The notes under the pieces are model-generated. The model was not told the origin of the DNA. It searched no databases and saw nothing but the letters and a program-made list of their open reading frames with translations. A stretch of DNA of 64,000 bases from Armatimonadota bacterium. GTDB lineage: Bacteria > Armatimonadota > SYMT01. Shown here piece after piece: positions 17,175 to 33,407 of this stretch (its first letter is position 1; every line of letters starts with the position of its first letter). The translations under genes and the position numbers were made by a program. The stretch spans positions 992,001 to 1,056,000 of the forward strand of contig JAWLHY010000001.1 in the NCBI GenBank assembly GCA_041690135.1. The letters run 5' to 3'.

Positions 17175-17864
17175 ATGTTACGGAATCCTCGACGCGGCTT
17201 CACTCTAATCGAATTGCTCGTGGTGATTGCCATTATCGCCATCCTCGCCGCCATCCTTTTTCCCGTCTTCGCCCAGGCCCGCGAGAAGGCCCGTTCCATC
17301 AACTGCCTGAACAACATGCGTCAGCTCGGCACGGGCTTCGCGATGTACACGCAGGACTACGACGAGTGCCTGATCCCGCTCGCCATCGGCCAGCCCGCGC
17401 CGGCCGGTTCCATCATCGCCTCTGCGCAAACGTGGTGGCCCGACCTGCTCCAGCCCTACGTCAAGAACCGCCAGATCTTCCGCTGTCCGAGCCTACCGCC
17501 GAACCGCTTCGGTATTGCCTACAACCATCCGGAGTTGGGTTACTGGTTGGGTGGCGGGCTCTCGCTCGCCAGCATCGATAAACCGACCGACACCGCCGCA
17601 CTCGCGGACGCCGCCACGATTGCCAACCCCAATGAGCCGGACCCCGACAAGTGGGTGGCCGCCTCCGGCAACAGTGACAGCTACTTCTTCCGAACCCCGA
17701 ATAACGTGCCCCATTACACGGACAGTCCCTCGCGGGTCGTTAACCGGCATCAAGGAATGACCAACGTGGTCTTCGTGGATGGGCACGCCAAGGCGATGAA
17801 GACCAGTGCGCTCGGCTTCCAGTTCCCGGCGGGAGATGCCCGCGCCCTCTGGGATAAGCGATAA
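17175..17864 (+). CDS. Prepilin-type N-terminal cleavage/methylation, DUF1559/H-X9-DG protein
   Basis: [25 protein letters not shown]; CLNNMRQLG; [16 protein letters not shown]; GGAGA RBS. Confidence 0.93.
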
Positions 17865-17906
17865 CCACCGCCGCGGCTAGGTCCGACTACCTCGCCGACC
17901 AACATG

Positions 17907-17956
17907 AAAAGCCCGGACCAGGATGATAAGCCGTCCCGGTCCGGGCTTCTCTTTTG
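17907..17956 (+). terminator. Intrinsic terminator
   Basis: AAGCCCGGACC...GGTCCGGGCTT stem followed by CTCTTTT, after the stop at 17864. Confidence 0.7.
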
Positions 17957-18089
17957 CCGTGAAGGAGTGCCCCAGCGAAGAGACGAACAGCCCGGCAACG
18001 TGCGGTGAACGGTGAGTTCCGTCCATTGCCGGACAGTTCCATTGACTCCAAGACGGACACCACGGCGCCGCCGCCAACCTGGAAACCCC

Positions 18090-18836
18090 ATGTCACTCCC
18101 CCACCTCTACACCGTCAAAGACGGCGCGGTACTTTGGAACGGCAAACCCACCAAGGCGGACGTCGCCAGTTTCACTCCCCTGGGAGGCGCCTGGGCGCGC
18201 GATGCCTCCCACATCTTCGTTCAGGGCGCTCCCCGGCGGGGCATCGACCTGGCGACCTTTCAATACCTGAACCCCGTTTTCGTGAAGGATGCCTGCGCCG
18301 TTTATGACTGGGAAGGGACGATCAAGGGCGCCAATCCGGCCACATTCGTTATCCTCGACCCGGGCGTTTTCATCCAGGACGAGATCGTTCCACAGGCCTG
18401 GGCTCGGGGCTACGCACGGGATGCGGATGCCGTTTACTACCACGACCAGATGTTCGGCCGTGCTACCGCGCTGCGCGGCGCGGACCCCGGCAGCTTTGTC
18501 TCGCTGCGCAACGATTACGGCCTGGATGTCCAGGGCGTGTGGCACCAGAAGTCCCGGCTGCCGAAAGCGGCTCCCGCCACATGGGTGTACCTGGGTCGCC
18601 TGTGGAGTCGCGACCAGACCCGCGTCTTTTACGCGGAACGCGAGGTGACCGGCCTCGACCGCGAGCGGTTCGCTCCGGTCCTGGCCCCCACAATCGGCAA
18701 CTTCGCCACCGACGGGAAGCGCTTCTTCAACGCCGATCGCGAGATCCCGGAAGAGGAGTTCTGGGCCGAACTGGCGGAGAACTTCGGCGCCTTCGAACAG
18801 CGCCTCCGCGTGGCCCGTCGCCGTTTTATTCGCTAA
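18090..18836 (+). CDS. DKNYY-family repeat protein
   Basis: Repeated ADxxSF/TF...xARDxxxVYY units (ADVASF, IDLATF, ANPATF, ADPGSF). Confidence 0.75.
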   Translation: MSLPHLYTVKDGAVLWNGKPTKADVASFTPLGGAWARDASHIFVQGAPRRGIDLATFQYLNPVFVKDACAVYDWEGTIKGANPATFVILDPGVFIQDEIVPQAWARGYARDADAVYYHDQMFGRATALRGADPGSFVSLRNDYGLDVQGVWHQKSRLPKAAPATWVYLGRLWSRDQTRVFYAEREVTGLDRERFAPVLAPTIGNFATDGKRFFNADREIPEEEFWAELAENFGAFEQRLRVARRRFIR

Positions 18837-18928
18837 GGAGCGGCTTGGATCGGTAAGAATCTCGGCTCCGCGTCCGCTACAAGAACAGGCGTGGCGAGTG
18901 TCCCAGGCAGGCGTAAAGGATCAGCTCC

Positions 18929-20284
18929 ATGGACGACCGCATCGACATCAGTTCCTATCCTCTTAACTCCCGCCTCCGGATAGCCGTATCGACGGGGGAC
19001 GTCGGCATCGTGCGGGAACTGATCGCCCAGGGGGCCGACGTGAACTCGACCGATGAAGACGGCTGGAGCCTCCTGGAGTGGGCGGTCAACCGCAATCATT
19101 TGGATGTAGTGGAGATCCTGCGGGCAGCGGGCGCTCAAGACACGCTCCAGTCGGCGGCTGCGTTGGGCGATGTGGAGTTGGTGCGCCGGCTGCTGGATGA
19201 GGGCGCCTCGCTTGCGGAAACAAACTCCGATGGCACTTCCCCGCTCATGTGGGCGGCTTCGGAAGGCCACGTCGAAGTTGTGCGGATCCTCCTCGAAAGA
19301 GGAGCGGATGTTCATCACCGCAACCATTTCGGCGATGACGTCCTCCGCTGGATGGGCGGACGTAACGTATCGGCCATGATGGAACTCCTTCGGCAGGCGG
19401 GCGCCCACCTGGGATTGGCCGATTTCGCGCACGGCGATAACCGACCGGCGGTTGAGGAATTGCTCCGCGACGGCGAGGATGCAAACCGCCGTGACGAAGG
19501 CGGCACTACGCCGTTAATCGGCGCCGTGTGCAGTGAGGGCAAGACTTGCCTGGATCTGCTACTGCAGCATGGCGCAGATATTAATGGGACGGATGTTCAC
19601 GACAACACTCCTCTCACTTACGCGGCAAGACTGGGGGATGTGGACCTGATCCACTATCTGGTTGAGCGCGGTGCCAGGGTTAACCCGGAGACCGGGAGTT
19701 CGTCACCGCTGTCGGATGCCGTATGGTGGGAGCGTGTCGATGCCGTCCGGACGCTGTTGGACCTTGGCGCGCAGTTCGAACCCGCGGGCTTTCAAGGTTC
19801 AGGTCCCTTACCGAGATTCCTCGGCAGGGTCACCCCTGACACAATTACGATCGCGGAGTTGCTCATTGCCGCAGGGGCGGACGTCAACGCACGCTCCACC
19901 ACCGATGGGAAACAACCACTCCATGAAGCAGCGAAGAAAGGGAGTAATGAACTTGTCGCCTTGCTCCTTGAACATGGGGCGGACCCTAATGGACGCGACA
20001 AGTTTCAGCAGACCCCCTTGTTCGACGCGGTGGATCGGGGGCATCTGGAGACTGCCGAGTTACTTCTCTGCGGTGGAGCGGACCTGAATGCGGAGACTTC
20101 CCCCGGCGTGACGGTTCTATCCAACGCAGCTTACTTTGGTCGCCTGCAAACCGTGAAGCGGTTGCTGGCCTGGGGGATTTCCCTGGAAGGAAAGCGAGGA
20201 TGGCTGCCATTGAACAAGGCTCGCTGGCGAGGCCACACCCAAGTCGTCGAACTGCTGCTACAAGCAGGGGTGCGCCAGGAGTGA
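18929..20284 (+). CDS. Ankyrin repeat protein
   Basis: About 10 repeats of the GxTPL...A...G...V..LL..GADVN type. Confidence 0.93.
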   Translation: MDDRIDISSYPLNSRLRIAVSTGDVGIVRELIAQGADVNSTDEDGWSLLEWAVNRNHLDVVEILRAAGAQDTLQSAAALGDVELVRRLLDEGASLAETNSDGTSPLMWAASEGHVEVVRILLERGADVHHRNHFGDDVLRWMGGRNVSAMMELLRQAGAHLGLADFAHGDNRPAVEELLRDGEDANRRDEGGTTPLIGAVCSEGKTCLDLLLQHGADINGTDVHDNTPLTYAARLGDVDLIHYLVERGARVNPETGSSSPLSDAVWWERVDAVRTLLDLGAQFEPAGFQGSGPLPRFLGRVTPDTITIAELLIAAGADVNARSTTDGKQPLHEAAKKGSNELVALLLEHGADPNGRDKFQQTPLFDAVDRGHLETAELLLCGGADLNAETSPGVTVLSNAAYFGRLQTVKRLLAWGISLEGKRGWLPLNKARWRGHTQVVELLLQAGVRQE

Positions 20285-20444
20285 TGTCGCGTGGCAGCCA
20301 GCCCCTATAGCCCCAGAAATAGCAAAAATTTGTTCTGTAATGCCGAAACTTGCACCACCCGGCGGGTTCCTATTCCGGTGATGATGGACGGCCGACCGCA
20401 GCCGTGAAAGGATGCCGTTGCCAGGAGGTGCAACATTAGCTACT

Positions 20445-21929
20445 ATGAATATCCGGAACCTCATCCCGTCTACCCTTGCGGTCACCGCCGGTCTCTTCCT
20501 GACCGCGGCCGCCCATACCCGGGTCCAGGCACAGGCGCCGGACCGGCCCAACATCTTGCTTGTTCTCTCGGACGACCACAGCGCCGCGCACCTGGGCTGC
20601 TACGGTAACCCGGACATCAAGACGCCCAACTTCGACCGGTTCGCGGCCCAGGGCATACGCTTCGACCGCGCCTACGTCGCCTCTCCCCAATGCGTGCCCT
20701 CGCGCGCTTCCATCATGACCGGTCGCTCTCCCGTGGCGATCGGCATGACCCGCTTCTCGGCGCCCCTGCCGCGCGAGGTGGTTACCTATCCGGAGGTGCT
20801 GCGGGCCGGCGGCTACTTCACGGGCGTGGCCGGCCGCACCTATCACCTGGACGGCAGCCGGATGCCCCCCGCCACGCAGAAGGTGGTGGAAGAGCGGAAG
20901 CTCCGGACCTTTCCCGACCGCCTCGACTACGTGAAAACGGCCGGGCAGGGCGCGCAGTCGCTCTCCCAGTACCGGGAGTTTCTAGACCTGGCCCAGGGCA
21001 AGCCGTTCTTTCTCCAGCTCTGCTTTAGCGAGCCGCACCGGCCGCTGGACCGGAACGCCATTCCCCAGCCGCACGACCCTGCGAAGCTGAAACTCCCCGT
21101 CTTCTACCCGGACACTCCCGGCGTGCGGGACGACTTCGCCCGCTACTACGACGAGATCGCCCGGTTGGACGGCTACTTCGGCGAGGTGCTGGCGGAGCTG
21201 GAAAAGCGCGGGCTGGCCAACAACACCCTGGTGGCATTCATGGGCGACAACGGCGCGGCGCAATTCCGGGGCAAGGGCACCCTCTACGAGTTCGGCGTCC
21301 GGGTTCCGCTCCTGGTCCGCTGGCCGGGTAAGGTCAAACCCGGCGAGGTGGCCGCGGAGCTGGTCTCCGGTGAGGATCTCGCCCCTACGTTCCTGGAAGC
21401 CGCCGGGCGTCCCGCGCCGAAGGAGATGACCGGCCGCAGCTTCCTGAAGCGTCTCCGCGGCGAGCCCTACGAGGTTCGGCGCCATGTCTTTGCAGAGCGC
21501 GGCGCGCACGGCAGCGGCCTCCCCACGAACTCGGCCGCCTTCGACCTGGGTCGCTGCGTCGTCACCCCCACGCACAAGCTGATCTACAACGCCCTTTGGC
21601 AGCTCCCCTACCACCCGGTCGACTTCGCCGGGGATCCGTTCTTCAAGGAAGTGCAGCGTCTGCATACGGAGGGGAAGCTCGACCCGAAGCTGTCGCAGCT
21701 CTATTTCTCCCCCACCCGCCCCATGTTCGAGCTGTACGACCTCCGGCAGGACCCGAACGAGCTGAACAACCTGGCCGGAAAACCGGAAGCCGCCGTCGTG
21801 GAGCGCGAGTTGAAGGCGGCGCTCCAGGAGTGGATGTTGCTGGAACGCGATTACGTCCCCCTCCCCATCCCCCCACCCGCCCAGATGCGCCGGGCCAGAC
21901 AAAGGATGAAGAGTGCCTTCGGCCGATAA
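20445..21929 (+). CDS. Cys-type sulfatase (heparan N-sulfatase/sulfamidase-like)
   Basis: PNILLVLSDDH, CVPSR, EPHRP, GDNG...GKGTLYE, ELYDLRQDPNELNNLA. Confidence 0.92.
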   Translation: MNIRNLIPSTLAVTAGLFLTAAAHTRVQAQAPDRPNILLVLSDDHSAAHLGCYGNPDIKTPNFDRFAAQGIRFDRAYVASPQCVPSRASIMTGRSPVAIGMTRFSAPLPREVVTYPEVLRAGGYFTGVAGRTYHLDGSRMPPATQKVVEERKLRTFPDRLDYVKTAGQGAQSLSQYREFLDLAQGKPFFLQLCFSEPHRPLDRNAIPQPHDPAKLKLPVFYPDTPGVRDDFARYYDEIARLDGYFGEVLAELEKRGLANNTLVAFMGDNGAAQFRGKGTLYEFGVRVPLLVRWPGKVKPGEVAAELVSGEDLAPTFLEAAGRPAPKEMTGRSFLKRLRGEPYEVRRHVFAERGAHGSGLPTNSAAFDLGRCVVTPTHKLIYNALWQLPYHPVDFAGDPFFKEVQRLHTEGKLDPKLSQLYFSPTRPMFELYDLRQDPNELNNLAGKPEAAVVERELKAALQEWMLLERDYVPLPIPPPAQMRRARQRMKSAFGR

Positions 21930-21997
21930 GGACGGGTTGCGGCCGATAAAGATAAGGATAAAGAGGGACCTGCGGAGGAATTACGGCGGAAGGTCAG

Positions 21998-22110
21998 CCC
22001 CAACACCTGAAGGCCGAACACCCGAACGCCTGAGCACCCAACGCCCAACACCCGAACACCGGAACACCTGAAAACCCGAATACCTGAAAACCCGAACACC
22101 CGAACCCCGA
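21998..22110. repeat. Degenerate octamer tandem array (CCCGAACA/CCTGAAAA)
   Basis: About 13 imperfect 7-8 bp units directly upstream of the RBS of the 22124 gene. Confidence 0.8.
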
Positions 22111-22123
22111 TTGGAGGATAACG

Positions 22124-22552
22124 ATGTCCCCGACACTCACAGTCGAAGCAAAGATGCTGGGTCAGCGAAAACCGCTGATCTCCGATTGGCACATCACTCT
22201 CCCCCCCGAGCTTGGGGAGCGAACGACGCTCCGCCAATTGATCACGCAGGTGGTCCTGGCGGAAGTGGCCGCCTTCAACGAGCGCCAGGAGCAGCGTCGG
22301 TTTACCCAGGTACTGTCGGCGGAGCAGATTCAGGCGGGTGTGGCGGCCGGAAAGATCGATATGGGAGGCCGGGAGGAAGTCACGCCGGCCGACGCCGAGG
22401 CAGCCATATCGACGGCGATCCAGGCCTTCGCGGACGGCCTCTACTTCGTCTTCCTGGATGACGAACAGCAGACGGAACTGGATCGCGAGGTCTCCCTCAA
22501 ATCGGCCAGCCGCCTTCTGTTTCTGCGTCTCGTAGCGCTGGCGGGAGGGTAG
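22124..22552 (+). CDS. Small protein with C-terminal Gly-Gly; candidate ubiquitin-like beta-grasp protein with helical insert
   Basis: GGAGG RBS; ends YFVFLDD...LDREVSLKSASRLLFLRLVALAGG*, a MoaD/Urm1-like pattern. Confidence 0.7.
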   Translation: MSPTLTVEAKMLGQRKPLISDWHITLPPELGERTTLRQLITQVVLAEVAAFNERQEQRRFTQVLSAEQIQAGVAAGKIDMGGREEVTPADAEAAISTAIQAFADGLYFVFLDDEQQTELDREVSLKSASRLLFLRLVALAGG

Positions 22553-22554
22553 CC

Positions 22555-25500
22555 ATGCTGAACCCACAGGAAGCCGAGCGCCGGCTCAAGGAGTTCAAGG
22601 TCAAGGATGGCAAGGGCCGGCGCCTCGCGCGGATCGCGGAGTTGCCGGAAGCCTTGCGCGCTATCGGCTACGGAATGTATGGGGCGGCTGCGGACGGCGG
22701 GCACGTGAAGGGCACGGATGCTCGTGAGAAATTGGTGGAAGCCTCTTTCCGCGCACTGGACGAGTTGTCTCAGGCGGACCGGGAGCAGCTCTTTGAGGTC
22801 CTTTTTCCTCAACTCGGCCGCTACGTGGAAGGTGCCTGGCAGATGTTAGGCCAGCGGCCGTATCAGCACGGATGGGAGCGCCGGGCCTTCCGCGCCCCAG
22901 GTGACAACGAGCGCTCACGGGCTATTCGCCGGGCTCGCCTGGACCAGTATCTGGAGCAGCTCAAAGGTTACGAGCAGGACATCACCTGGCTGGCCGCCTG
23001 GACCCCCTACATCTTCCATTATTGGGCGGAGAGTGTAGCGGAATTGCTGGCCGCGGCGATCGACGCGGGCGGCTCAGCGGGTAACGAAGTCTTCGAGATC
23101 CTCTGTGCTTCCGCCCGGGGTGAGCACCCGATCGGCGCCATGGGAAGGCATGTCACCGGGGCGCTTCTCTGCGCTTCCCGGCCGGACGGCTGGGAGTTTG
23201 TGGAGCGACTCTTGCTGGCGGCACAGCGAGAAGAGGGGCTGCGGCAGACCATTCTGGAAAGCGTGGACCAGGCGCATCCGGAGGCGTTCCGGCGAATGGT
23301 GCGCCTGATCCTGGACCATGACCTTCTGCGGTTCAGTGCGACCATCCGCGCGGTGGACGTCTGGTTCGGCTTCCAGTTGGAAGCGACGGATGCGCGGGTG
23401 GCTCGCGGCATTCTGGAGCAAGTCCTCCGGTTCATGGAAGATCCGGCCGCTAGGGAGGCGGCGATCCACGGGGGCGACGCCCGCTCCGCCTATCTCGCCC
23501 TTTGGGCGACTGCGTTTGAGAATGCTCCGGCCGCGGTCGCGCCGGCCACCCATCTGCTGAGCACTGGAGCGCTGGAAGGTCGCTACGCGGCCGCGCTCCT
23601 TTTGTCGCAACTCGCCCTTTCCGAATCCCGGTCGGCACTGGTGTCCGCGCTGGATGACCCCGACCTGCGGGTTGCCCTCACCGCCTTCTCCGGCCTGGGT
23701 CTGGGTGGCTACTACGGCGGCTACTCCGACGACGATGAAGACGAGGACATCGCTCCGGAGAAGCAGCCTGGTGTTTTCGAGGCGCTGACGCGGCTAGTGG
23801 CCCGGGTCCCGAAGAAAGAAAACACCATCGCGGACCTGGTGTGGCCCGGCAACGTGCTCCAGGCCGACCAGGCCACCGTCGCCGGCGCGCTGCTTTCCAC
23901 CCTCGGCCAACGTTCCCCGACCGAGCTGATTCCCTTCTTGCCACTGATGGAGCCGTATACCCGGAGCAGCGTGGCCGGCCTTCTGAGCAAGAAGAAGCTG
24001 CGCAACCTCCCGGAGGTCCGCGACACTCTGCTGTCCATGGCTGGGGATGCCGCGGAAGGGGTTCGCGAGGAAGCGCTCAAGGCTCTCGGCAAGCAGAAGA
24101 TCAACCCAGAGGAAGCTCCCCGACTGGAAGGCTTGCTGACCCGGAAGGCCGCGGACCTGCGCCGGGGCGTGATCGGGCTCCTTCTCAACCAGGAAGATGA
24201 GGCGGCTTTGGCCAGTGCCGAGCGCTTGGCGAGCGCAAAGAACGTCAACCAGCGCACCGCCGGGCTGGAAGTCCTCCAGCAGCTCTGCCAGAGCGATCGC
24301 CAGGCGGAGGCCTGCCGCCGCCTGGCCTCGGAGTACCCCGCCCGGCAGAAAGCTCTTTCCGATGCGGAGAAGCAGCTCCTCGATACCCTCACGGAAGAGG
24401 CGGCCGCCGCGCCGGAGGTCACGCTCAAGGACGGCCTGGGCCTCTTCGATCCGGCCCACCTCACCCCGGTGGAGCGGCCCCTGGAGGTGCCGGGGCTGCA
24501 ACTGGAGTCGGAAGCAGCCGGAGCGCTCCTCCAGTCCCTGGACGATCTGGTTCACCAGCATCGCGAAGTGCCGGTGCGCCTCTGGTACGCCCATCAGATC
24601 GACGAGGATGACGAGGATGCGGAACCGGGAGTGGAGCCGGATGAGGGCAATTCCGTCTTGCTCGGCGACCTCACTTGGGGGCTCCCGTCTCCCTACCCCA
24701 ACGTCCCGGTGGAGAAAGATGCCGCGCGTCTGCCACTCCGGCAGGTCTGGGAGGACTGGTGGGCCGTCCGGCCGACGGAAATGCAGGATCCCGACGGGAT
24801 GGAGCTGCTCCGGGCTCTGGCGATGGTTCAGGACCTCTCGAAGAAGAAGCTCCGGCATCGCGAGGTGACCCAGAGCGTCCTCGAGTGGCTTTTCCGTCTG
24901 AACCCTCCAGCGGAGGCGCTGCCGTTCCTCCTGGGAGCTGCGGAGACCATCTTCGCACGGGTCCCGGAGGAGAAGATCCGCAAGGCCCCCAACCCCAACC
25001 GGCCCTGGGCGGCACTAGGCTGGCGGAATAATGAAGCGCGCCTCTTCTGGCTGCAGTTGGCGCGGACCCATCGAAAGTACCGTCCGGAAGACTGGCGCGA
25101 CGAGGACCACAACCGCTTGTGGCGGCTCCTTCGCTGGTTGGACAAGCCCACGCCGGAAGCGCCCCGCTTCAACATCGAACTCGAGGAGGTGCTGCGGGCC
25201 TGGCGGGCCGGCAGCGCCACCGAGGCGGACCTCATCGAGATGCTGCTGGCGACCCGCGGGGAAGGCAACGAGTACTACTACGGAAACCGGCACTCCGAGC
25301 TGCAGTTGCTGACCGGCCGGAAACCGTCTCCTCTGTTCGAGCAGTACCCCGGCCTCCGCGAGATCGTTGTGCGGTGCCGCGACCGGGTGCTGGAGGTGGA
25401 ACTCGCGCGCGGTGAACTGCCCAGCCCGGCCACTCCTGCCGCGCTTTGTTTGCGGAGTGCAGGCGGTCTCGATACGCTGATCCGGCTCCTGAAAGCCCTG

Positions 25501-27531
25501 GGACGGACCGGATTCATCCGCGGTTGGATCTACAACGACCAGGGGCGCACGGCCGTCTTCAGCAAGCTGCTGCGGAGCACCTTTCCGGAGGAGGGCGATA
25601 CTCCCGAACGGTTCCGCGAGGCGGTGGAAGCGGCGAAGATCCCGGCGAAACGGCTGGTGGAAGTGGCGGTATACACGCCGCAGTGGGCGCGGTACGTGGA
25701 ACACGCCCTGGGCTGGCCGGAGTTCGAGGAGGCCGTCTGGTGGGTGCACGCCCACACCAAGGATGACCGCTGGAGCGTGGATGAAGACATCCGCGAGACC
25801 TGGACGGCACAGGCCAGCGAACGCACTCCGCTCACGGCGCAGAACCTGATCGATGGCGCGGTCGACGTGACCTGGTTCCACCGGGTGTATCAGGGGCTGG
25901 GAGCGGATCGTTGGAGTATTCTCGACGACGCGGCCAAGTACGCTTCCGGCGGCGGCGGGCATAAGCGCGCCCAGCTCTTCGCTGATGCGATGCTGGGCCG
26001 GGTAGCGCGAGAGTCGCTCGTGTCGCGCATCCAGGAGAGCCGCAACCAGGACTCGCTGCGCGCCCTGGGGCTCCTGCCCCTGCCGGACTCGGCGGCCGAG
26101 CGGGAGGCGGAGGTGTTGGAGCGCTACCGCATCATCCAGGAGTTCCTCCGCACCAGCCGCCAGTTCGGCTCGCAGCGCCAGGCCAGCGAGAAACTGGCGT
26201 CGGGGATCGCCATGGAAAACCTCGCCCGTACTGCCGGCTATGCCGACCCGGTCCGGCTCGAATGGGCCATGGAAGCGCGCGCGATCGCCGACCTGGCCGG
26301 TGGAGCCCTGGTTGCCACGGCGGCGGAGGTCACGGTCACGTTGAGTATCAACGACCTGGGTGAGCCGGACCTCACTTTCGTCAAGAACGGCAAATCCCTG
26401 AAGGCCCTACCGGCGGCGGCGAAGAAGGACCCGGACGTGGCGGCCCTGGTCGCCCGCAAGCGCGACGTGCAGCGGCAGGCCTCGCGTATGCGTCTCTCGC
26501 TTGAGAACGCCATGTGCCGGGGCGACCGGTTCACGGGGGCGGAGTTACACACCCTGTCCGGTCACCCGGTCCTGGCCCCCATGCTCCGCAACCTGGTCTT
26601 CCTGGTCGAACCGACCACCGGAGGCGAAGGGGGCGTATGCGGGGCCGGTTACCCGGTTGAGGGCGGCCGGGAGTTGGAAGCGCACGACGGTAGCCGCTAC
26701 CCGGTGGGCGAAACGGATCCGCTGCGGCTGGCGCACCCGCACGACCTGTTGAGAACCGGCGAGTGGCACCTCTGGCAGCGTGAGTGTTTCCGGCGCGAGC
26801 GGGTCCAGCCGTTCAAGCAGGTATTCCGGGAGTTGTACGTTCTCACGGAGGCCGAACAGCAGGGCGGCATTCGTTCTGTCCGTTATGCCGGCCACCAGAT
26901 CCAGAACCGCCGGGCCATGGCGTTGTTGGGCAAGCGCGGATGGGTGAGCAATTACGAAGAGGGGGATGTCCGCCGGACCTTCCACGCCGAAGGTCTCACG
27001 GCCTGGCTGGAGTTCGACGCCGGCATCACCACGCCTGCCGAGGTGGAGGGCCTCACGGTCGAGCACGTCGGCTTCACCCGGCGCGGCGAGTGGAAGCCCC
27101 TTCGCCTTGAGGAAGTACCCCCACGGATCTTCAGCGAAGTGATGCGCGACGTGGACCTGATCGTCAGCGTCGCCCACGCGGGCGGAGTCGATCCGGAAGC
27201 CACCCAGTCCACGGTGGAGATGCGCGCGTCGCTCCTGCGCGAGACCTGCGGGCTGCTCAAGCTGGAGAACGTACGCCTCCAGAACACCCACGCGCTCATC
27301 GACGGCAAGCTGGGGACCTACTCGGTCCACCTGGGCAGCGCCGTGGTGCACCGCCAGCCGGGGGGACACCTCTGTATCGTGCCGGTTCACTCCCAGCACC
27401 GGGGCCGCCTCTTCCTGCCCTTCGCGGACAACGACCCGCGTACGGCGGAAGTGGTCTCCAAAGTGCTGCTGCTGGCCCGCGATCACGAAATCAAGGACCC
27501 CACTATCCTCGAACAGATCTACGCGCAGTAG
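22555..27531 (+). CDS. Large HEAT-repeat DUF5724/DUF4132 (YehI/MolR-like) protein
   Basis: HEAT-like ALDDPDLRV; QFGSQRQASE; RLSLENAM; HPVLAPML; QPFKQVFRELY; FSEVMRDVDL; DPTILEQI C-terminus. Starts 2 nt after the previous stop. Confidence 0.85.
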   Translation: MLNPQEAERRLKEFKVKDGKGRRLARIAELPEALRAIGYGMYGAAADGGHVKGTDAREKLVEASFRALDELSQADREQLFEVLFPQLGRYVEGAWQMLGQRPYQHGWERRAFRAPGDNERSRAIRRARLDQYLEQLKGYEQDITWLAAWTPYIFHYWAESVAELLAAAIDAGGSAGNEVFEILCASARGEHPIGAMGRHVTGALLCASRPDGWEFVERLLLAAQREEGLRQTILESVDQAHPEAFRRMVRLILDHDLLRFSATIRAVDVWFGFQLEATDARVARGILEQVLRFMEDPAAREAAIHGGDARSAYLALWATAFENAPAAVAPATHLLSTGALEGRYAAALLLSQLALSESRSALVSALDDPDLRVALTAFSGLGLGGYYGGYSDDDEDEDIAPEKQPGVFEALTRLVARVPKKENTIADLVWPGNVLQADQATVAGALLSTLGQRSPTELIPFLPLMEPYTRSSVAGLLSKKKLRNLPEVRDTLLSMAGDAAEGVREEALKALGKQKINPEEAPRLEGLLTRKAADLRRGVIGLLLNQEDEAALASAERLASAKNVNQRTAGLEVLQQLCQSDRQAEACRRLASEYPARQKALSDAEKQLLDTLTEEAAAAPEVTLKDGLGLFDPAHLTPVERPLEVPGLQLESEAAGALLQSLDDLVHQHREVPVRLWYAHQIDEDDEDAEPGVEPDEGNSVLLGDLTWGLPSPYPNVPVEKDAARLPLRQVWEDWWAVRPTEMQDPDGMELLRALAMVQDLSKKKLRHREVTQSVLEWLFRLNPPAEALPFLLGAAETIFARVPEEKIRKAPNPNRPWAALGWRNNEARLFWLQLARTHRKYRPEDWRDEDHNRLWRLLRWLDKPTPEAPRFNIELEEVLRAWRAGSATEADLIEMLLATRGEGNEYYYGNRHSELQLLTGRKPSPLFEQYPGLREIVVRCRDRVLEVELARGELPSPATPAALCLRSAGGLDTLIRLLKALGRTGFIRGWIYNDQGRTAVFSKLLRSTFPEEGDTPERFREAVEAAKIPAKRLVEVAVYTPQWARYVEHALGWPEFEEAVWWVHAHTKDDRWSVDEDIRETWTAQASERTPLTAQNLIDGAVDVTWFHRVYQGLGADRWSILDDAAKYASGGGGHKRAQLFADAMLGRVARESLVSRIQESRNQDSLRALGLLPLPDSAAEREAEVLERYRIIQEFLRTSRQFGSQRQASEKLASGIAMENLARTAGYADPVRLEWAMEARAIADLAGGALVATAAEVTVTLSINDLGEPDLTFVKNGKSLKALPAAAKKDPDVAALVARKRDVQRQASRMRLSLENAMCRGDRFTGAELHTLSGHPVLAPMLRNLVFLVEPTTGGEGGVCGAGYPVEGGRELEAHDGSRYPVGETDPLRLAHPHDLLRTGEWHLWQRECFRRERVQPFKQVFRELYVLTEAEQQGGIRSVRYAGHQIQNRRAMALLGKRGWVSNYEEGDVRRTFHAEGLTAWLEFDAGITTPAEVEGLTVEHVGFTRRGEWKPLRLEEVPPRIFSEVMRDVDLIVSVAHAGGVDPEATQSTVEMRASLLRETCGLLKLENVRLQNTHALIDGKLGTYSVHLGSAVVHRQPGGHLCIVPVHSQHRGRLFLPFADNDPRTAEVVSKVLLLARDHEIKDPTILEQIYAQ

Positions 27532-27541
27532 GCGCTAACCG

Positions 27542-28115
27542 CAAGGGGCGGGCGTCTCGCCCGCCCCACTGACCCGGGTCTTCCCCGCACTTGTACTGCA
27601 CCACGGTAGCCGCAATGGTGGCAGTAGGGTCGTGGTCGCCGTCCCCGACCAGCACTACGATCCCGCACCCGTACTGCACCGCGAACCGCCGTCTCGAGCT
27701 CCAGCCGAATCCGCCGCATGGGGGCCGATCCCGTCCCGCACCACGCGCCACCGTCACGGACTACAACCGGATCCGGGGCATTGGTCCTGCTGTGCACCAT
27801 ACGCCACCGTCCCCACTGCTTTCAGGAGGCGCTGCACGGTGGGCCGACGGGTGCCGGACCATACTCTGGGGAAGGGATAGCGACCGTTCCCCTACCTCCA
27901 CCAGGCCGGCTACATGGTGGGCCGACAGGTGCGGTAGCAGGGTCGGCTCGGGACGTGTGGTAACCGCCATGCCTACCCAAATCCCCCACGAGCGAGGGTA
28001 GGGTCGCGGTCGTACTCCCGGCGAAGTGAGAGCAGTACCCGACCAGGATCATGCCTCCGCACCCGGAATGCATCCCGGTAGTAGCGCAGTGGGGCGGGCG
28101 TCTCGCCCACCCTTG
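27542..28115. repeat. Two REP-like palindromes (GGGCGGGCGTCTCGCCC-G/A-CCC) bracketing a degenerate internally repetitive spacer
   Basis: Copies at 27542-27570 and 28088-28115; internal imperfect repeats at 78-bp spacing (27583/27661, 27831/27909). Confidence 0.7.
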
Positions 28116-28233
28116 GAGCGACCAAGACTGTGTTTCCACCTCCCGATGGCAATCCCCAAAGGGTCCCTTTTTCCCTTCCCTTTCCCCTTCTTTGCGTCTT
28201 GGCGTCTTTGCGAGAGATTCGTCCCCCAGCGCT

Positions 28234-30036
28234 TCAAAGCTGATCCAGGATTCCCTCCCACTGCGCGCGTTCCTCCTCCGCCAGGTGGGGCCGCTGCAGG
28301 GCACAGTAACAGAGGGTATTCAGATAGCAGACGTATCCCTCTCGGGGCGCCTGTCGGAGCAGTTCCACATGGAGGGCCGCGATCTCCCTTTCGGCCGCCG
28401 GGTCCTCGGGGGCGATGCCGGCCAGGGCCAGGAGTGCGGCTTCCACCGACCAATCCACCGGCCCCCGCGCGAGGGAGAGCAGCACGCGGCGTCGCTCGCT
28501 TCCCTCCCAGCTATCCTCCCGACCGGCGAGCACCATCGCGGCCGCAACCTGAAGGCGATAGATCCAGGTCCACCACCGCATCCCATCCGGAGCTTCCGGT
28601 GGGTGCGTCATCACCGCCAGGATGTCGTTGACCGGATACTCCCGTAGGCAGCCAGACGCGTCCCGTGCCTGCGCGCGCCAGCCCTCGAAGGAATAGGGCG
28701 TGCGCGCGAGGTCCGCCACTTGCTCCGCGACTTCCGGTGATGGAGGCGTGAGAACCGGGGTGGCTTCGGAGTCCCGGTATGTCCACAGCCGGTACTCCAG
28801 GCGCGCTTTCAGTCTTCGCGGGTCGGGCTCGGCGATCTTGCCGACCTTCAGGCGTGGCTTCACATTCAATCCGAGTGCACGCAGTTGGCGCTCCACGGAC
28901 AGCAGGGCGCTGGGGCACTCCAGGTAGTTCACCGTGATCTCGAAGGGGTCGTCCAGCCCCAATTCTTTGCCCTCTTCCACGGCTGCAGCCAGGTCGCGTG
29001 TCAGGTTGATAATCGCCTCGCTGGGATCAGGGAGGTAGCTGCCGAAGTACGGGAGAAAGCGACGCATGAGCATGGCGGCCCGCTGGTTGTCCGGATGAGA
29101 CGCCGCAAACGTCTCCAGCTTCTGTCGCCACTCGTCAGCGCCCGTCAACTCGTGCTGCACCACCCACCAGGAGGGCAACGCCCAGGGATGCTCCGGTTCC
29201 TTACCGAGCACCCGCTCGTACTGCCGGGCCGCCTCGCGAGGGTCGCCGGTCTCCCAATAGAGATCCGCCAGGCTGAGCCAGATCGACTCCTCCTGCGGCC
29301 GGAACCGCTCCGCTTCGCGGAACACCGCAATCGCCTCCGCTGGTCGCTCCAGGTCCTGGAGAGCCGAGCCCACCGCCACCGCCGTCTCGAAAGAAGGCGC
29401 CGCCGCGTGCGCAGTGCGGGCGAGCGCCAGGGCCTCATCCTTCTCCCCCAGGCGTCTCAGCAGGCTTGCGCTGAGGAACGGGAGATATTCGCCCCAGGGC
29501 GACGGCGTGAGGACGGTTCGGATCAGCAACGGCAGACGCTGCAGCGTGGCTTCCCCGCTTCGCAGGTCGGATTGGAGCGCCGGTAACTGCTGCAGCAACT
29601 GCGTGTAGAACCCGATGAGCGGCTGCTCTGGTACCTTCCCCCGGTGCTCCGCCTTCTGCAGCCACTCAATGGCCCAGTCGAGGTACGAGGCGTCCGGTTT
29701 GGTCAACACCACCTGGAACAGGACTTCCAGCGCCTCCCCCAGGCGGTTGAGGCGCTCCAGCAGGTAAGCGCGCACCGCCACGGTGGCGAAGTAGTTCTCT
29801 TTCGCCAGGGGTGCCAGTTGGAGAGGGTCCGGGGCCACGTCGCTGATCCGCTCCAGCAGATTCCGCCACTCCGCCCGCATCGGGTCGTGGGCCAGGGCGC
29901 AGCCGGCATGGAAGGCGGCGTGCTGCAGGTCATTGGCTTTGAACGCCGCCTCCGCCAGCCGGATATCCTCCTCGGGTGTCGTCGCCGGCTTCGGCCGCTT
30001 CCTTCCAAAGAGCGCCTTGAACTGTTCGAACATCAA
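28234..30036 (-). CDS. Tetratricopeptide-repeat protein
   Basis: TPR-like helices (AEAIAVFREAERFRP, SLADLYWETGDPREAARQYERVLGKEPEHPWA). Confidence 0.8.
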   Translation of the reverse strand: MMFEQFKALFGRKRPKPATTPEEDIRLAEAAFKANDLQHAAFHAGCALAHDPMRAEWRNLLERISDVAPDPLQLAPLAKENYFATVAVRAYLLERLNRLGEALEVLFQVVLTKPDASYLDWAIEWLQKAEHRGKVPEQPLIGFYTQLLQQLPALQSDLRSGEATLQRLPLLIRTVLTPSPWGEYLPFLSASLLRRLGEKDEALALARTAHAAAPSFETAVAVGSALQDLERPAEAIAVFREAERFRPQEESIWLSLADLYWETGDPREAARQYERVLGKEPEHPWALPSWWVVQHELTGADEWRQKLETFAASHPDNQRAAMLMRRFLPYFGSYLPDPSEAIINLTRDLAAAVEEGKELGLDDPFEITVNYLECPSALLSVERQLRALGLNVKPRLKVGKIAEPDPRRLKARLEYRLWTYRDSEATPVLTPPSPEVAEQVADLARTPYSFEGWRAQARDASGCLREYPVNDILAVMTHPPEAPDGMRWWTWIYRLQVAAAMVLAGREDSWEGSERRRVLLSLARGPVDWSVEAALLALAGIAPEDPAAEREIAALHVELLRQAPREGYVCYLNTLCYCALQRPHLAEEERAQWEGILDQL

Positions 30037-30129
30037 CCCACCCCCCCTGCACTACTGTGCCCACGCCACCCTCGCAGTTCTCTCATCCACCGGCCCTAAT
30101 CGTAATCATAGCCCTAATCGACCGAAGGC

Positions 30130-30270
30130 CCCCTTCAACCCCTCGACCCCAAGGGGGCTTCAACCCCTGGCCCCCGCGGGGGGCTTCAACCTTCAACCTT
30201 CCAACCTCCAACCCCTGGCCCCCGAGGGGGGCTTCAACCTTCAACCTGCCAACCTTCAACCTTCAACCCG
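30130..30270. repeat. Composite short tandem repeat (TTCAACC units and CCCCTGGCCCCCGxGGGGGGC mini-hairpins)
   Basis: Repeated ttcaacc/ccaacct units with a 2-3x cccctggccccc..gggggcttcaacc block. Confidence 0.8.
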
Positions 30271-30273
30271 ACC

Positions 30274-30714
30274 TCACATCCGTCGCAGCAGTACGACTCC
30301 GGCGGCAATCAACGCCGCACCCAGCAGGCGGCCGGCCGAAATTGGTTGACGCTCTACCCCTAGCCAGCCGAAGTGGTCCAGCACCAGCGACATTCCCATC
30401 TGTCCGGCAACCACGAGCCCCAGCGTCACCGCGATGCCCAGCCGCGGCGGCGCGATGATCGCCACCACCACGTAGAAGGCGCCCAGCAGACCGCCGGTCC
30501 ATGCCCAGGAAGGGATACGCTGCAGCACCACCGCCGTAGGAAGAGGAGGCCGGGCCAGGGCCAGGTAGAGAAGTATCCCGGCGGTGCCCACGAGGAACGA
30601 GACCAGGCCGGCCAGCACCGGATGCCCTAACTCCCGGCCCAGGCGCGCATTCACGCCCACCTGCAGCCCCACCGCCGCCCCCGCTGCCGCCACCAGCAAC
30701 ATGAACCAGGCCAT
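30274..30714 (-). CDS. DMT family transporter (YdcZ/DUF606-like)
   Basis: QVGVNARL, SFLVGT, WAWTGGLLGA, AGQ...LDHFG, RLLGAAL. Confidence 0.9.
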   Translation of the reverse strand: MAWFMLLVAAAGAAVGLQVGVNARLGRELGHPVLAGLVSFLVGTAGILLYLALARPPLPTAVVLQRIPSWAWTGGLLGAFYVVVAIIAPPRLGIAVTLGLVVAGQMGMSLVLDHFGWLGVERQPISAGRLLGAALIAAGVVLLRRM

Positions 30715-30841
30715 CCGTTCTACGCCTTTCCGCCCACTGGAGGTATACTCGTTTCTCCGGTGAATGTTACGACAGTCTCCGCCCAGGACGCCATCCGGGC
30801 ACCCGTTTCCTGGCGTTCGGCCGGCTGGACCCGTAGGAGCA

Positions 30842-31819
30842 ATGGATACTTCGCACTCCGCCGAATCCCTCATTGAACAGGGTTGTGACCTTCTGGAGCA
30901 GGAACGCTTCCAGGAAGCCATCGCCTGTTTCGATTTCGCCCTCCGGTTCGATTCCGACTCCGCTTACGCCTGGTATTGCCGGGGCTGCGCCCTTTCCTCG
31001 CTGGAGCGATACGCGGAAGCCGCCGAGTCGTACTTGAAGGTCACGAAGCTGGCCCCGGAACGCAGCATCGCCTGGTACAACCTCGGTAACGCGCTCCAGC
31101 AACTCGGCCAGGTCGAGCAGGCGCTGCAGTGCTTCGACGCGGCTACCCACCTCGACCCGGAAGACGCCGATGCCTGGATCAACAAAGGCCGGCTCCTCGA
31201 CGATGCGGGTGACCCTTCGCAAGCCATCGAATGCTACGACCGCGCCCTGGACCTCGCCCCGGAGGACCTGGTCGCCTGGTCCAATCGCGGGAATAGCTTG
31301 AAAGATCTGGAACAGTTCGAGGCGGCCCTGGAGAGCTACCAGGAGGCCTTGAGGCTGCAGGCTCACCATTGGCCCGCCCTGTTCGGCGCCGGGGATTGCC
31401 TGATGGCTCTGGACCGGCCGCAGGAGGCCCTCGGTTTCCTGGAGCGGGGTCTTCGGTACAACCCGGAATGGGCGGCCGGTTGGTGCAACCGCGGCGTGGT
31501 GCTGGGCCAGCTCGGACTGGATACGGAGGCGCTATTGTCCCTTCAAGAGGCGGTGAAACGGGAGCCGGATGAACCGGCGGTTTGGAACAATCTGGCGGAA
31601 ATCCACGCGCGTCTGGAGCAATCCGAAGAAGCGATCCAGGCTTTCGACCGCGCCCTGGCCCTCTCCAACTCTTACGCTCCCGCCTGGTTCGGAAAGGCAC
31701 GTCTCCTCTACCACCTGGGTCAACAGGACCAGGCGCGCAGAGCGTACCAGCAGTACGTCACCCACGGCGATCCCGAAGACCCGCATGTCCGCCAGGTCCG
31801 TCAGTGGCTTGCCTCCTGA
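30842..31819 (+). CDS. TPR repeat protein (about 9 canonical TPRs)
   Basis: AWYCRG, AWYNLG, AWINKG, AWSNRG, GWCNRG, VWNNLA, AWFGKA repeats. Confidence 0.93.
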   Translation: MDTSHSAESLIEQGCDLLEQERFQEAIACFDFALRFDSDSAYAWYCRGCALSSLERYAEAAESYLKVTKLAPERSIAWYNLGNALQQLGQVEQALQCFDAATHLDPEDADAWINKGRLLDDAGDPSQAIECYDRALDLAPEDLVAWSNRGNSLKDLEQFEAALESYQEALRLQAHHWPALFGAGDCLMALDRPQEALGFLERGLRYNPEWAAGWCNRGVVLGQLGLDTEALLSLQEAVKREPDEPAVWNNLAEIHARLEQSEEAIQAFDRALALSNSYAPAWFGKARLLYHLGQQDQARRAYQQYVTHGDPEDPHVRQVRQWLAS

Positions 31820-31820
31820 G

Positions 31821-33407
31821 ATGGAAGAACCCACCCACGAAGATCGTCAGCTTTCGCTCTCACTCCGCGACGAAGCAGGCTTGCGCGCCATGTTGGAAGC
31901 CGTGGTGGACCAGCTTCCGGCGGGAGTTATCCTGGCTGAGGCGCCCTCCGGGCGCCTCATCTTGGGAAACCGGGAAGTAGAGCGCATCTTCCGTCAGTCT
32001 TTCCAACCGGCGTCGGCCGCCGAGAGTTACGAACGTTGGATCCTCATGCGCCCGGACGGAACTCCCTTGCCCACCGACGAGCGTCCCCTTCGCCGCGCGC
32101 TCCGGGGAGAGACGGTTACCCAGGATGAGGTTGCAATCCAGCGGGGTGATGGGACGCAGGGATTACTCTCGGTCAACGCGTCGCCCGTTCTGGATGAGGC
32201 GGGGTCGATCATTGCCGCCGTGGCCACCTTCACCGATGTGACGCTCCAGAAGCAGCTCGAGCAGGAATTGCGCGCGAGCGAAGAGCGCTTCCGCACCCTG
32301 GTCGAACAGTCGCCGTTGAGCATTCAAGTACTGGCGCCGGACGGCACCACCCTGCAGGTGAACCGGGCCTGGGAAGAACTGTGGAGCCTGACTCTGGCGC
32401 AGTTGCAGCAGGTCGGCTATAACGTGCTGCAGGACCCCCAGTTGGAGCAACGGGGCATTCTTCCTTACCTACGGAGAGGGTTTGCCGGCGAGGCGACGCG
32501 CATTCCGCCCATTCTCTACCAGCAGCATGAGACGCTGCCCCAGGCGGCTTCGCCGGATGATTCGGGACGGTGGGTGCGAGCCGTAATCTACCCGGTGCGC
32601 AATCTGGCGGGAACGATCGAGCGGCTGGTGCTCATCCACGAGGACTTCACGGAAACCAAGCGCTTGGAGGAGGCGCTGGCGCAGCGAGTGAAGGAGCTGG
32701 CCGCCGCGGACCGTCGCAAAGATGAGTTCCTGGCTATGCTCGGGCACGAATTACGAAACCCACTGAGTGCCGTGGCGAATGCGCTCCAGGTGATGGAGAT
32801 CGCCCCGCCCGGCTCGCCCGCTTTCCAGCGCAGCTTCGCGGTGGCCCGTCGCCAGTTGGCCCATCAGCAACGGATCGTGGATGATTTGCTCGATGTGAAC
32901 CGGATTTCGCGGGGGCGTATCCAACTCTACTCCGAGCAACTCGATCTGGCAGCTCTCGTTCGGGATGCGGTGGAGGATCGGCGCGACAGCATTCAGGCCG
33001 TGGGGCTCGAATTGTCGGAAGACATTCCGCCCAGCCCCGTCCAGGTGACCGGTGACCGTACCCGCCTGCTTCAGGTGGTGGACAACCTCCTGGACAATGC
33101 TCGCAAGTTTACGCCTCCGGGCGGCCGGATTCACGTGCGCCTCCTATTCGATCCCGCTGTGCGTGAGGCTCGCCTCGTAGTGGCTGACACGGGGGTCGGG
33201 TTGGACCCGGATCTCCGCGAGTACCTGTTCGAGGCCTTCGCGCAGGCGGAACACAGTCTCGAGCGCAGCCGTGGCGGTCTTGGCCTGGGACTCTACCTCG
33301 CCCGGAGCCTGGTGGAACTGCATGGGGGCCGCCTTATTGCGGAAAGCGGGGGGCCTGGCCAGGGCACCGAGTTCTCCGTCTATCTACCCCTCGCCGGATC
33401 GAACTGA
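31821..33407 (+). CDS. PAS-PAS sensor histidine kinase
   Basis: Two PAS domains; GHELRNP H-box; NLLDNARKFT, DTGVG, GLGLGL. Confidence 0.93.
   Translation: MEEPTHEDRQLSLSLRDEAGLRAMLEAVVDQLPAGVILAEAPSGRLILGNREVERIFRQSFQPASAAESYERWILMRPDGTPLPTDERPLRRALRGETVTQDEVAIQRGDGTQGLLSVNASPVLDEAGSIIAAVATFTDVTLQKQLEQELRASEERFRTLVEQSPLSIQVLAPDGTTLQVNRAWEELWSLTLAQLQQVGYNVLQDPQLEQRGILPYLRRGFAGEATRIPPILYQQHETLPQAASPDDSGRWVRAVIYPVRNLAGTIERLVLIHEDFTETKRLEEALAQRVKELAAADRRKDEFLAMLGHELRNPLSAVANALQVMEIAPPGSPAFQRSFAVARRQLAHQQRIVDDLLDVNRISRGRIQLYSEQLDLAALVRDAVEDRRDSIQAVGLELSEDIPPSPVQVTGDRTRLLQVVDNLLDNARKFTPPGGRIHVRLLFDPAVREARLVVADTGVGLDPDLREYLFEAFAQAEHSLERSRGGLGLGLYLARSLVELHGGRLIAESGGPGQGTEFSVYLPLAGSN

Follow-up and report, generated by a model that had tools for sequence, protein, structure and literature searches.

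Conservation of a two-gene module encoding a Gly-Gly-ended ubiquitin-like protein and a giant DUF5724-DUF4132-DUF7737 protein, with a predicted complex of the two products

Background

In a stretch of 64,000 nucleotides (nt) from an Armatimonadota bacterium (GTDB lineage Bacteria; Armatimonadota; SYMT01; NCBI GenBank assembly GCA_041690135.1, contig JAWLHY010000001.1, positions 992,001 to 1,056,000 of the forward strand), hereafter called the window, a gene for a 142-amino-acid (aa) protein ending in Gly-Gly is followed after 2 nt by a gene for a protein of 1658 aa. Is the small protein a ubiquitin-like protein (Ubl), is its Gly-Gly end there for a reason, and what has the giant partner to do with it? 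The MoaD-MoaE and MoaD-MoeB, ThiS, CysO, SAMP, and TtuB systems also contain small proteins with a free C-terminal Gly-Gly, and activating enzymes (E1) shared by several Ubls exist, e.g., Thermus TtuC and Haloferax UbaA. Bacterial Ubl operons of the Bil and Bub types encode their own E1, conjugating enzyme (E2), and protease; the window protein is likewise a small Ubl with a C-terminal Gly, but its module consists of two genes only.

A first-pass annotation of the window, made from the sequence alone, had proposed a Ubl in an operon with a DUF4132 protein. The present analysis finds a real, conserved two-gene Ubl module. In the reading that we prefer, and to which we assign a probability of about 0.6, the Ubl and the giant form an obligate two-protein complex with a role in stress, the Ubl being docked on the DUF4132-DUF7737 region of the giant beside Cys1607.

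Results and discussion

The Gly-Gly end and the ribosome-binding site of the next gene

The Ubl gene (22124-22552, + strand) starts with ATG, encodes 142 aa with the C-terminus FLRLVALAGG, and has a GGAGGA ribosome-binding site (22113-22118, +) 5 nt upstream of its ATG. The giant gene (22555-27531, +; ATG start, 1658 aa) is translationally coupled to it over the 2-nt gap. Both open reading frames (ORFs) and the junction, GGA GGG TAG CC ATG, were reproduced as first described. The last two Ubl codons, GGA GGG (22544-22549, +), double as a GGAGGG Shine-Dalgarno-like run 5 nt before the ATG of the giant, and the first-pass annotation had therefore cautioned that the Gly-Gly might be a mere by-product of the downstream ribosome-binding site; on that reading the small ORF would have no tail-dependent role.

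Loci with different gene spacing speak to this point. A species-level genome scan (one genome per species) gave 225 Ubl relatives, of which 80 loci were kept (Chloroflexota, Armatimonadota, Planctomycetota, Verrucomicrobiota, Cyanobacteriota, and single Pseudomonadota records); the Ubl ends in GG in 67/80 and in GA in 10/80 of them, and the start of the giant could be placed in 65/80. In the 39 loci with gaps of at most 12 nt the end is GG in 38/39 and the penultimate Gly codon is GGA or GGG in 35/39, so that where the genes abut, as in the window, the codons are those that a by-product would require. At a gap of 14-830 nt (26 loci), however, the end is still GG in 21/26 (GA in 3/26) and the penultimate Gly codon is GGC or GGT in 22/24. 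The Gly-Gly is thus kept at every spacing and codon choice alone tracks the ribosome-binding site, which refutes the by-product explanation together with the conservation of the whole RLVALAGG block in at least five phyla; we regard its remaining probability as negligible.

Larger samples give the same picture of the chain end. Of 143 newly listed cluster representatives, GG closes the chain in 119 and GA in 11; several of the others are fragments, and three carry one or two residues after the glycines (GGC, GGYF, GGIF). The Ubl relatives listed earlier end in GG in 115/120 cases.

A new family with a ubiquitin-like fold

The Ubl was folded by AlphaFold2 (AF2) from an alignment of 37 sequences, giving a model with a predicted local distance difference test score (pLDDT) of 79 and a predicted template modelling score (pTM) of 0.69. 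Its strands lie at residues 4-12, 19-25, 108-111, 114-116, and 128-136, its main helix at 36-63, and two extra helices at 66-75 and 91-103; the loop that joins the extra helices is poorly modelled, and the tail 137-142 is free in the monomer. The best Foldseek match is human MOCS2A (5mpo, E 0.02), followed among the top rows by Urm1, ubiquitin, SAMP1, and Ras-binding domains; no match was found at E <= 0.001. The 50 matches listed, judged by their titles, are ubiquitin folds (MoaD, ThiS, CysO, SAMP1, ubiquitin, ISG15, FAT10, UBL, DIX). By this model the small protein is a ubiquitin-like beta-grasp fold, as had been read from the order of its elements, with a helical insert of about 40 aa instead of the roughly 50 aa first estimated.

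No named family accommodates the sequence in the collections searched. Pfam at E <= 1 gave no family for the Ubl, ThiS/MoaD (PF02597) included, NCBIfam gave chance-level rows only, the PADLOC-DB defence models at E <= 1 gave zero families for the Ubl and the giant, and in the ESM Atlas the Ubl fell among unnamed clusters only and DUF7737 gave no usable result. One search returned 200 Ubl homologues at E <= 1e-3, and a profile search of 1.84 billion cluster representatives returned 2510 at E <= 1e-3, of which 1488 also pass E <= 1e-10. The small protein belongs to a large, new, unnamed family. Compared with the MoaD/ThiS-type carriers, it differs in lacking membership by sequence, in its helical insert, and in the absence of a linked E1.

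Conservation within the protein peaks in the RLVALAGG block, and G141 is invariant in the 37-row alignment. This block lies in the C-terminal strand and tail, residues 131-142 (LLFLRLVALAGG; codons 22514-22549, +). A second conserved element is the loop of the insert, residues 73-82 (AAGKIDMGGR; codons 22340-22369, +), with invariant G76, K77, and G81.

Linkage to the giant and the importance of DUF7737

In 79/80 loci the gene directly after the Ubl gene, on the same strand, encodes a homologue of the giant, and in the remaining locus the contig stops 66 nt past the Ubl gene; the linkage to DUF4132 genes that had been supposed from one locus is therefore conserved. When the 1740 flanking ORFs of the 80 loci were clustered, no third gene common to the loci was found: the widest flank family occurs in 8/80, and the top families are generic (hybrid kinase, ABC ATPase, aminotransferase, WD40 protein). 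The pair also stands together in the annotated records of Deinococcus radiodurans, D. ficus, Chondrinema, and Bacteroides finegoldii, with different neighbours in each and with the Ubl gene labelled 'hypothetical protein' in all four.

The 9.1-Mb genome from which the window comes encodes six DUF4132 proteins. Two of them carry DUF7737, and both have a gene for a GG-ended Ubl 2-8 nt upstream. The second such Ubl (locus L094, G000:C8:79899-82900) has 130 aa, ends in FVRLVPLVGG, is 32% identical to the Ubl of the window, and is encoded 8 nt upstream of an 855-aa DUF4132+DUF7737 protein without DUF5724; such short-type pairs are common in the phylum sample. Neither DUF7737 nor a Ubl goes with the four other DUF4132 proteins, which comprise one of 903 aa, one of 293 aa, and a pair with WGR at the N-terminus. 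Of 151 phylum genomes sampled, 30 contain DUF7737 (35 matches in all) and 19 contain a match to the Ubl profile (23 in all). A Ubl gene precedes 18 of the 22 strong DUF7737 matches (E <= 1e-27) at a distance of 2.2-5 kb, with contig and strand shared. For two others the assembly is fragmented and the Ubl gene falls on a different contig, and the last two lack one altogether. None of the 13 weaker matches is accompanied by a Ubl match, and in the 11 of them that were readable no small ORF ending in GG comes before the gene. The decisive domain in the partner is DUF7737, and not DUF4132 by itself. The first-pass annotation, which had named the DUF4132 protein as receptor, target, or non-canonical ligase, had not seen this domain.

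No fused Ubl-giant form turned up among proteins of 250-2000 aa, which is weak evidence, and a search for short stand-alone DUF7737-like proteins gave only contig-end fragments of the giant. The motif pattern is fitted by 115/120 of these fragments, and all 115 have Cys at the position of Cys1607.

One distant Ubl relative keeps other company. At locus L109 (1496-3080, genome G023), with a similar match in genome G007, a 140-aa protein ending in RFVRVYPLPDARGG is followed 4 nt later by a 385-aa PCMT-type protein carboxyl methyltransferase and not by a DUF4132 protein; both genomes also have two UQ_con E2-like genes each.

The giant and its C-terminal module

Pfam divides the giant into DUF5724 (737.7 bits, cut-off 25), DUF4132 (164.2 bits, cut-off 27), and DUF7737 (130.3 bits, cut-off 27). 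The DUF5724 region (residues 58-1239; 22726-26271, +; E 4.2e-221) is a helical HEAT-like solenoid, within which residues 459-540 (23929-24174, +) match HEAT_2 at E 4e-8. DUF4132 (residues 1279-1463; 26389-26943, +) carries a subtype-specific QPFKQxFRELY motif, and DUF7737 (residues 1554-1655; 27214-27519, +) contains the motif PGGxLCIVPV with Cys1607 (codon 27373-27375, +). Scanned for simple catalytic motifs, the giant showed none, Walker A included, and the solved structures include no sequence relative of the giant or of its C-terminal profile.

The last 397 residues of 54 giants were aligned. Invariant positions are H1394, W1404, QPFKQ 1418-1422, R1425, E1426, and Y1428 on the DUF4132 side, E1528, M1530, R1531, D1532, D1534, G1543, D1546, and P1547 between the domains, and Y1589, LGS 1593-1595, R1616, LPF 1621-1623, D1627, K1636, D1643, and D1648 in DUF7737; Cys1607 is present in 43/54. 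AF2 gave the module a pLDDT of 86.9, and two invariant segments (model residues 283-289 and 352-363) have low confidence. In the model DUF7737 is an alpha/beta domain that starts with a helix, continues with five short strands and a long loop headed by the Cys, and closes with two helices. Foldseek matches of the middle domain were generic only (YugN, TBP, KA1-like) and were set aside.

The DUF4132 domain itself is shared with the MolR-type WGR-DUF4132 proteins (E. coli MolR/YehI; DR2173), a group for which PMC8533742 reports a link to DNA damage: DdrO targets DR2173, and the LexA regulon is said to include molR. Unlike the giant, the WGR-DUF4132 proteins of the genome have no DUF7737, no Ubl, and no QPFKQxFRELY or MRDxDL motif, showing PPFPQxGR where Ubl-paired giants have QPFKQxFRELY. 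DUF7737 proteins without a Ubl (11 readable) keep the domain core (Y-x-V-H-L-G-S, D-x-x-T-A, L-A-x-D); the Cys and the Ser-Lys pair are each present in 0/11 and the LPF loop in 2/11. A Ubl-paired DUF5724-type giant from a Planctomycetaceae metagenome-assembled genome (locus L028) has, within its last 397 codons, a 94-aa insertion with a WGR domain (Pfam E 5e-18), which ties the DUF5724 type to the WGR-DUF4132 (MolR-like) proteins.

A predicted complex that accounts for most of the invariant residues

The C-terminal module and the Ubl, both entered as alignments, were submitted to complex prediction. The interaction prediction score from aligned errors (ipSAE) was 0.77, 0.74, and 0.77 in three runs and 0.04, 0.00, and 0.00 in three controls; in the calibration of the tool this mark was reached by 58/80 solved complexes and 2/110 mismatched pairs, counts that are only roughly valid here because custom alignments were used. 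The runs have at least 68% of contacts in common, and the pLDDT of the partner is at least 73. The first-pass annotation had suggested such a prediction as a way of seeing whether the tail enters the partner, and the tail is indeed placed on it, with 0.77 against 0.04 for the best control.

The predicted interface has 170-192 contacts. On the Ubl side it takes in the whole tail 131-142, the insert loop 73-82, and parts of the helices, and it holds most of the invariant Ubl residues (G76, K77, G81, A98, A101, F133, L136, L139, G141, and G142). On the side of the giant it is predicted to comprise residues 1395-1412, 1424-1432 (FRELY and its surroundings), D1534, and 1560-1568, and within DUF7737 the strand CIVPV 1607-1611, the loop RGRLFLPFAD 1616-1626, and the helix 1628-1639, so that E1426, L1427, Y1428, D1534, S1635, and K1636 lie in it. 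The tightest predicted pairs are Ubl F133 with the LPF loop and Ubl 136-139 with the helix bearing S1635 and K1636. L139 of the Ubl is placed near residues 1608-1609 (model residues 346-350 touch it), and K77/I78 lie on L1427/Y1428, where model residues 165-167 contact Ubl 76-78 with an expected error of 0.6-0.8 A. Both segments that are disordered in the monomer model of the module become ordered in the predicted complex. Most of the invariant positions of both proteins are thus explained by the predicted interface.

Co-variation of the Ubl end with Cys1607

Eighty metagenome loci were added by means of the GA-type alignment, and 84 pairs had both features readable. GG-ended Ubls are paired with a Cys-bearing giant in 54 cases and with a giant lacking the Cys in nine (F, L, or I instead); GA-ended Ubls are paired with Cys in none and with another residue (W, V, P, F, T, E, N) in 19. 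The single GR-ended Ubl has a Cys partner, and the single GGYF-ended one a partner with Ser. All five GA-paired giants in the 54-row alignment likewise lack Cys1607. GA ends arise only where the Cys is already gone, and in some lineages the module apparently works without the GG end and without Cys1607.

On a FastTree tree of 83 partner sequences, the Cys changes state at least four times and the GG end at least six times. One Planctomycetota/Verrucomicrobiota clade of 25 rows has no Cys and holds 18 of the 19 GA rows, and a Chthonomonas locus (L058) is a separate case of GA with a non-Cys residue. Independent contrasts are few, three on supported branches, and the sign test is non-significant; the co-variation is therefore a pattern and no proof. 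Since it fits the predicted contact, it suggests that the tail end and Cys1607 are functionally coupled.

Is the Ubl a carrier?

A Gly-Gly tail beside a cysteine raises the alternative of true conjugation: an E1 encoded elsewhere would adenylate Gly142, the Ubl would form a thioester on Cys1607 of an E2-like DUF7737, and from there it would pass to the giant itself or to HEAT-bound clients. The chain that stops exactly at GG, with rare precursor-like GGC, GGYF, and GGIF ends, is what this scheme would lead one to expect, as is the co-variation of the last residue with Cys1607 (GA+Cys 0/19, GG+Cys 54/63), GA being found only on Cys-less backgrounds, i.e., in the one 25-row clade and in L058. 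The same Cys is, however, present in just 55/84 pairs while the remaining domain is invariant, the co-variation stems from few independent events, and an interface of 170-192 contacts is of the kind seen in stable subunits.

The likeness of DUF7737 to E2 domains also has two sides. Its order of helix, strand meander, Cys loop, and two helices, the Cys after the last strand in G-x-L-C-I, and the predicted Ubl tail lying on it recall the E2 (UBC) fold and its inactive UEV, RWD, and FANCL-ELF relatives, and six of the eight VIA rows that cover the domain are UBC, UEV, or FANCL-type folds; the top Foldseek rows are the tandem RWD domains of Knl1, non-significant at E 5e-3. Ten genuine UQ_con proteins from genomes of the phylum were compared with DUF7737 by hhalign, and the sole match pairs PGGxLCI, the Cys1607 motif, with GGxVCI at their catalytic Cys (probability 0.8%, E 0.068, seven columns; not significant). 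Unlike E2 and UEV domains, DUF7737 ends a giant protein, shares a large composite site with DUF4132, and has a Cys that is not invariant; no His-Pro-Asn (HPN) motif was found in the giant, and a Pfam scan of the 54 C-terminal sequences at E 10 gave no UBC, RWD, or Prok-E2 family. With so weak a profile match, no HPN, a variable Cys, and no Pfam hit, we do not file DUF7737 in the E2 family, although its modelled shape and predicted use suggest something loosely like an E2 or UEV domain.

As to activation, the flanks of the pair, scanned over 17130-33407, contain no E1, E2, or JAB gene, as had been stated for the adjacent genes. Four ThiF-family genes of the genome score above the Pfam cut-off. 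One of them, 24 kb from the pair (51711-52919, - strand), encodes a 402-aa E1-like ThiF+rhodanese protein of the MoeZ/MoeBR type, which may be a candidate trans-acting activator of the GG-ended carriers of the genome, and which would be one E1 candidate for the scheme above; the gene adjoins that of an Mrp/NUBPL-type Fe-S P-loop NTPase (53414-54577). The Prok-JAB matches of the genome sit on contigs other than that of the pair. Elsewhere a ThiF-family gene was found in 1/160 loci of the type seen in the window (MoeZ-like, 3.5 kb away), adjoining 1/35 DUF7737 places in the phylum, and adjoining 0/19 such places in 201 Planctomycetota genomes. The case among the 35, the sole E1-linked one in that sample, is genome G110 (L213 5613-6449, G110:C36), in which a 278-aa ThiF-like gene product with CxxC motifs is encoded divergently beside a short-type Ubl/DUF4132-DUF7737 pair. 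With no E1, E2, or JAB gene linked, we consider the carrier scheme possible and rather doubtful, even though the genome's own ThiF-family genes and the G110 pair are on its side.

It is likewise a tentative notion that the Ubl tail is activated or transferred at some point. A fuller version, in our view unlikely, is a minimal carrier system in which a housekeeping MoeZ/ThiF-type E1 would charge the Ubl, the Cys of DUF7737 would hold the thioester, and clients would be tagged in a DNA-damage response, the Cys-less GA lineages being UEV-like, binding-only descendants.

Eukaryote-like E2s do occur in the phylum: 16/151 sampled genomes have UQ_con E2 proteins with an HPN...C motif (L196-L207), often two per locus, and in genome G032 such a gene adjoins a ThiF gene. 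They are unrelated to the Ubl-giant finding.

The Deinococcus orthologue and a role in stress

Plasmid records revealed an orthologous pair, DR_A0165/DR_A0166, on the 412-kb replicon of D. radiodurans. DR_A0165 has 134 aa, ends in LLRLTALAGG, is 43% identical to the Ubl of the window, and is separated by 2 nt from DR_A0166 (1626 aa; DUF5724+DUF4132+DUF7737). We located the published DdrO operator 63-82 nt upstream of DR_A0165, and D. ficus has a similar palindrome at the same place upstream of its pair. DdrO binds the drA0165-drA0166 operon, which responds to DdrO depletion with strong induction, and V5-tagged DRA0166 rises after mitomycin C in the wild type and not in an irrE deletion mutant (PMC8533742). 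Levels of SEP068184, as the DR_A0165 product is called, increase on exposure to gamma rays and H2O2; a resemblance to MOCS2A and SAMP1 was predicted for it, it pulled down Trx1, and strains deleted for DR_A0165 survive H2O2 better and have higher catalase activity (PMC9650054). The same paper describes SEP068184 as confined to Deinococcus and without an operator; both statements are contradicted by the family search and by the operator located here. In the passages that concern these genes, neither PMC8533742 nor PMC9650054 treats the two products as a complex or recognises the family. Literature searches on DUF4132 (full text) returned nothing about a Ubl, those on DUF5724, DUF7737, and the Pfam accessions returned nothing, and those on MolR with WGR returned nothing bearing on a Ubl pairing.

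The first-pass annotation had left the choice between stress and anti-phage conflict. The stress side is supported, for the orthologue, by the DdrO/IrrE control of the Deinococcus pair (PMC8533742). A system that senses or restricts invaders would agree with the patchy distribution (DUF7737 in 30/151 and, among Planctomycetota, 18/201 sampled genomes), the several paralogues in the genome, the occurrence of the pair on large plasmids, and the variable neighbourhoods; but no PADLOC model was matched, the pair does not lie in defence islands, one close relative turned up among the 2.9 million viral contigs scanned, and the sole experimental system is a DNA-damage regulon, which makes an anti-phage or other conflict function highly improbable.

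A further alternative is a MoaD-like sulfur carrier whose C-terminal thiocarboxylate, made by a MoeZ-type E1 with rhodanese, would be delivered into a DUF4132-DUF7737 pocket. The conserved GG end, the ThiF+rhodanese gene within the window, and a predicted tail-into-partner geometry that recalls MoaD-MoaE would suit it, and the DUF4132 gene molR of E. coli owes its first description to a molybdate phenotype (as cited in PMC8533742 and PMC7824862). YeeE, trxC, and modA lie near the D. radiodurans pair, but these neighbours are not kept in D. ficus, Chondrinema, Bacteroides, or the 80 loci; the thioredoxin, YeeE, and molybdate-transport genes were accordingly rejected as a functional clue, being confined to D. 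radiodurans among the records compared. Further, the Ubl has no ThiS/MoaD match in Pfam even at E 1, the giant is unrelated to MoaE and showed no known sulfur-acceptor fold, a terminal Ala is tolerated in some Ubl lineages, and moeA and moeB are not co-regulated in the data given in PMC8533742. Sulfur delivery is thus, in our judgement, very unlikely.

A model of the complex and the points against it

In the obligate-complex reading that we prefer, the Ubl would clamp the C-terminal DUF4132-DUF7737 module by two conserved elements, the tail FLRLVALAGG lying between the helix and the Cys-bearing strand of DUF7737 and the GK..G loop of the insert lying on the FRELY motif of DUF4132. The HEAT-like DUF5724 solenoid of about 1200 residues could serve as the working or recognition platform. 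The GG end would be kept to fit a tight site beside Cys1607 and not for the sake of the ribosome-binding site. By orthology with DR_A0165/DR_A0166, the complex would most likely act in the DNA-damage or oxidative-stress response.

Several observations weigh against this reading. The complex is predicted and not measured, and the place it gives Gly142 is approximate. A purely structural tail hardly explains why the chain stops at G-G or G-A (119 GG and 11 GA of 143), nor why the Cys is kept in 54/63 GG pairs. The passages of PMC9650054 on the pull-down give the Trx1 interaction for DR_A0165 and do not name DR_A0166 as a partner. Finally, no damage-type operator was found upstream of the pair in the window, and none is common to the 79 loci, only 2/79 of which match a loose pattern of the radiation/desiccation response motif (RDRM). 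The stress role is for this reason borrowed from another phylum; the RDRM regulon being specific to Deinococcus, the absence of the operator bears on regulation and not on orthology.

Surroundings of the pair

The upstream neighbours are DKNYY, ankyrin, and sulfatase genes, and the downstream ones are TPR, YdcZ, and histidine-kinase genes. Upstream, the segments 17130-17864 and 18012-20284 hold genes for a type IV pilin-like N_methyl/DUF1559 protein, the DKNYY protein, and a 451-aa ankyrin-repeat protein. Just 5' of the Ubl ribosome-binding site there is an octamer array of 12.5 copies of CCGAACAC (22014-22110). Arrays of this kind (24 nt, at most four mismatches) occur at 123 places in the genome, so the array is not specific to the Ubl operon, and its candidacy as an operator was rejected in favour of a genome-wide short repeat. 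A promoter and terminator scan found no promoter-like site and fewer terminator-like sites than expected by chance. Among public sequencing runs no RNA run is listed for the locus, and two runs share 7% of words each.

Conclusions

The GG-ended Ubl family has thousands of members in Armatimonadota, Chloroflexota, Cyanobacteriota, Planctomycetota, Verrucomicrobiota, Bacteroidota, and Deinococcota, and it has no name yet. Through its pairing with the giant, three Pfam families whose function is unknown (DUF5724, DUF4132, and DUF7737) would for the first time become approachable in structure and function, and direct tests could be aimed at the GG tail, Cys1607, the LPF loop, and FRELY. The pairing would also join two Deinococcus papers in one complex, one of them dealing with DR_A0165 as a lone small peptide and the other with the operon as an unexplained DdrO target. 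If the tail were chemically active, the module would amount to a Ubl system of two genes with a borrowed E1, and would then bear on the origin of ubiquitin-type signalling from sulfur carriers. By analogy with Deinococcus, the pair is most likely a widespread and almost unstudied bacterial stress module.

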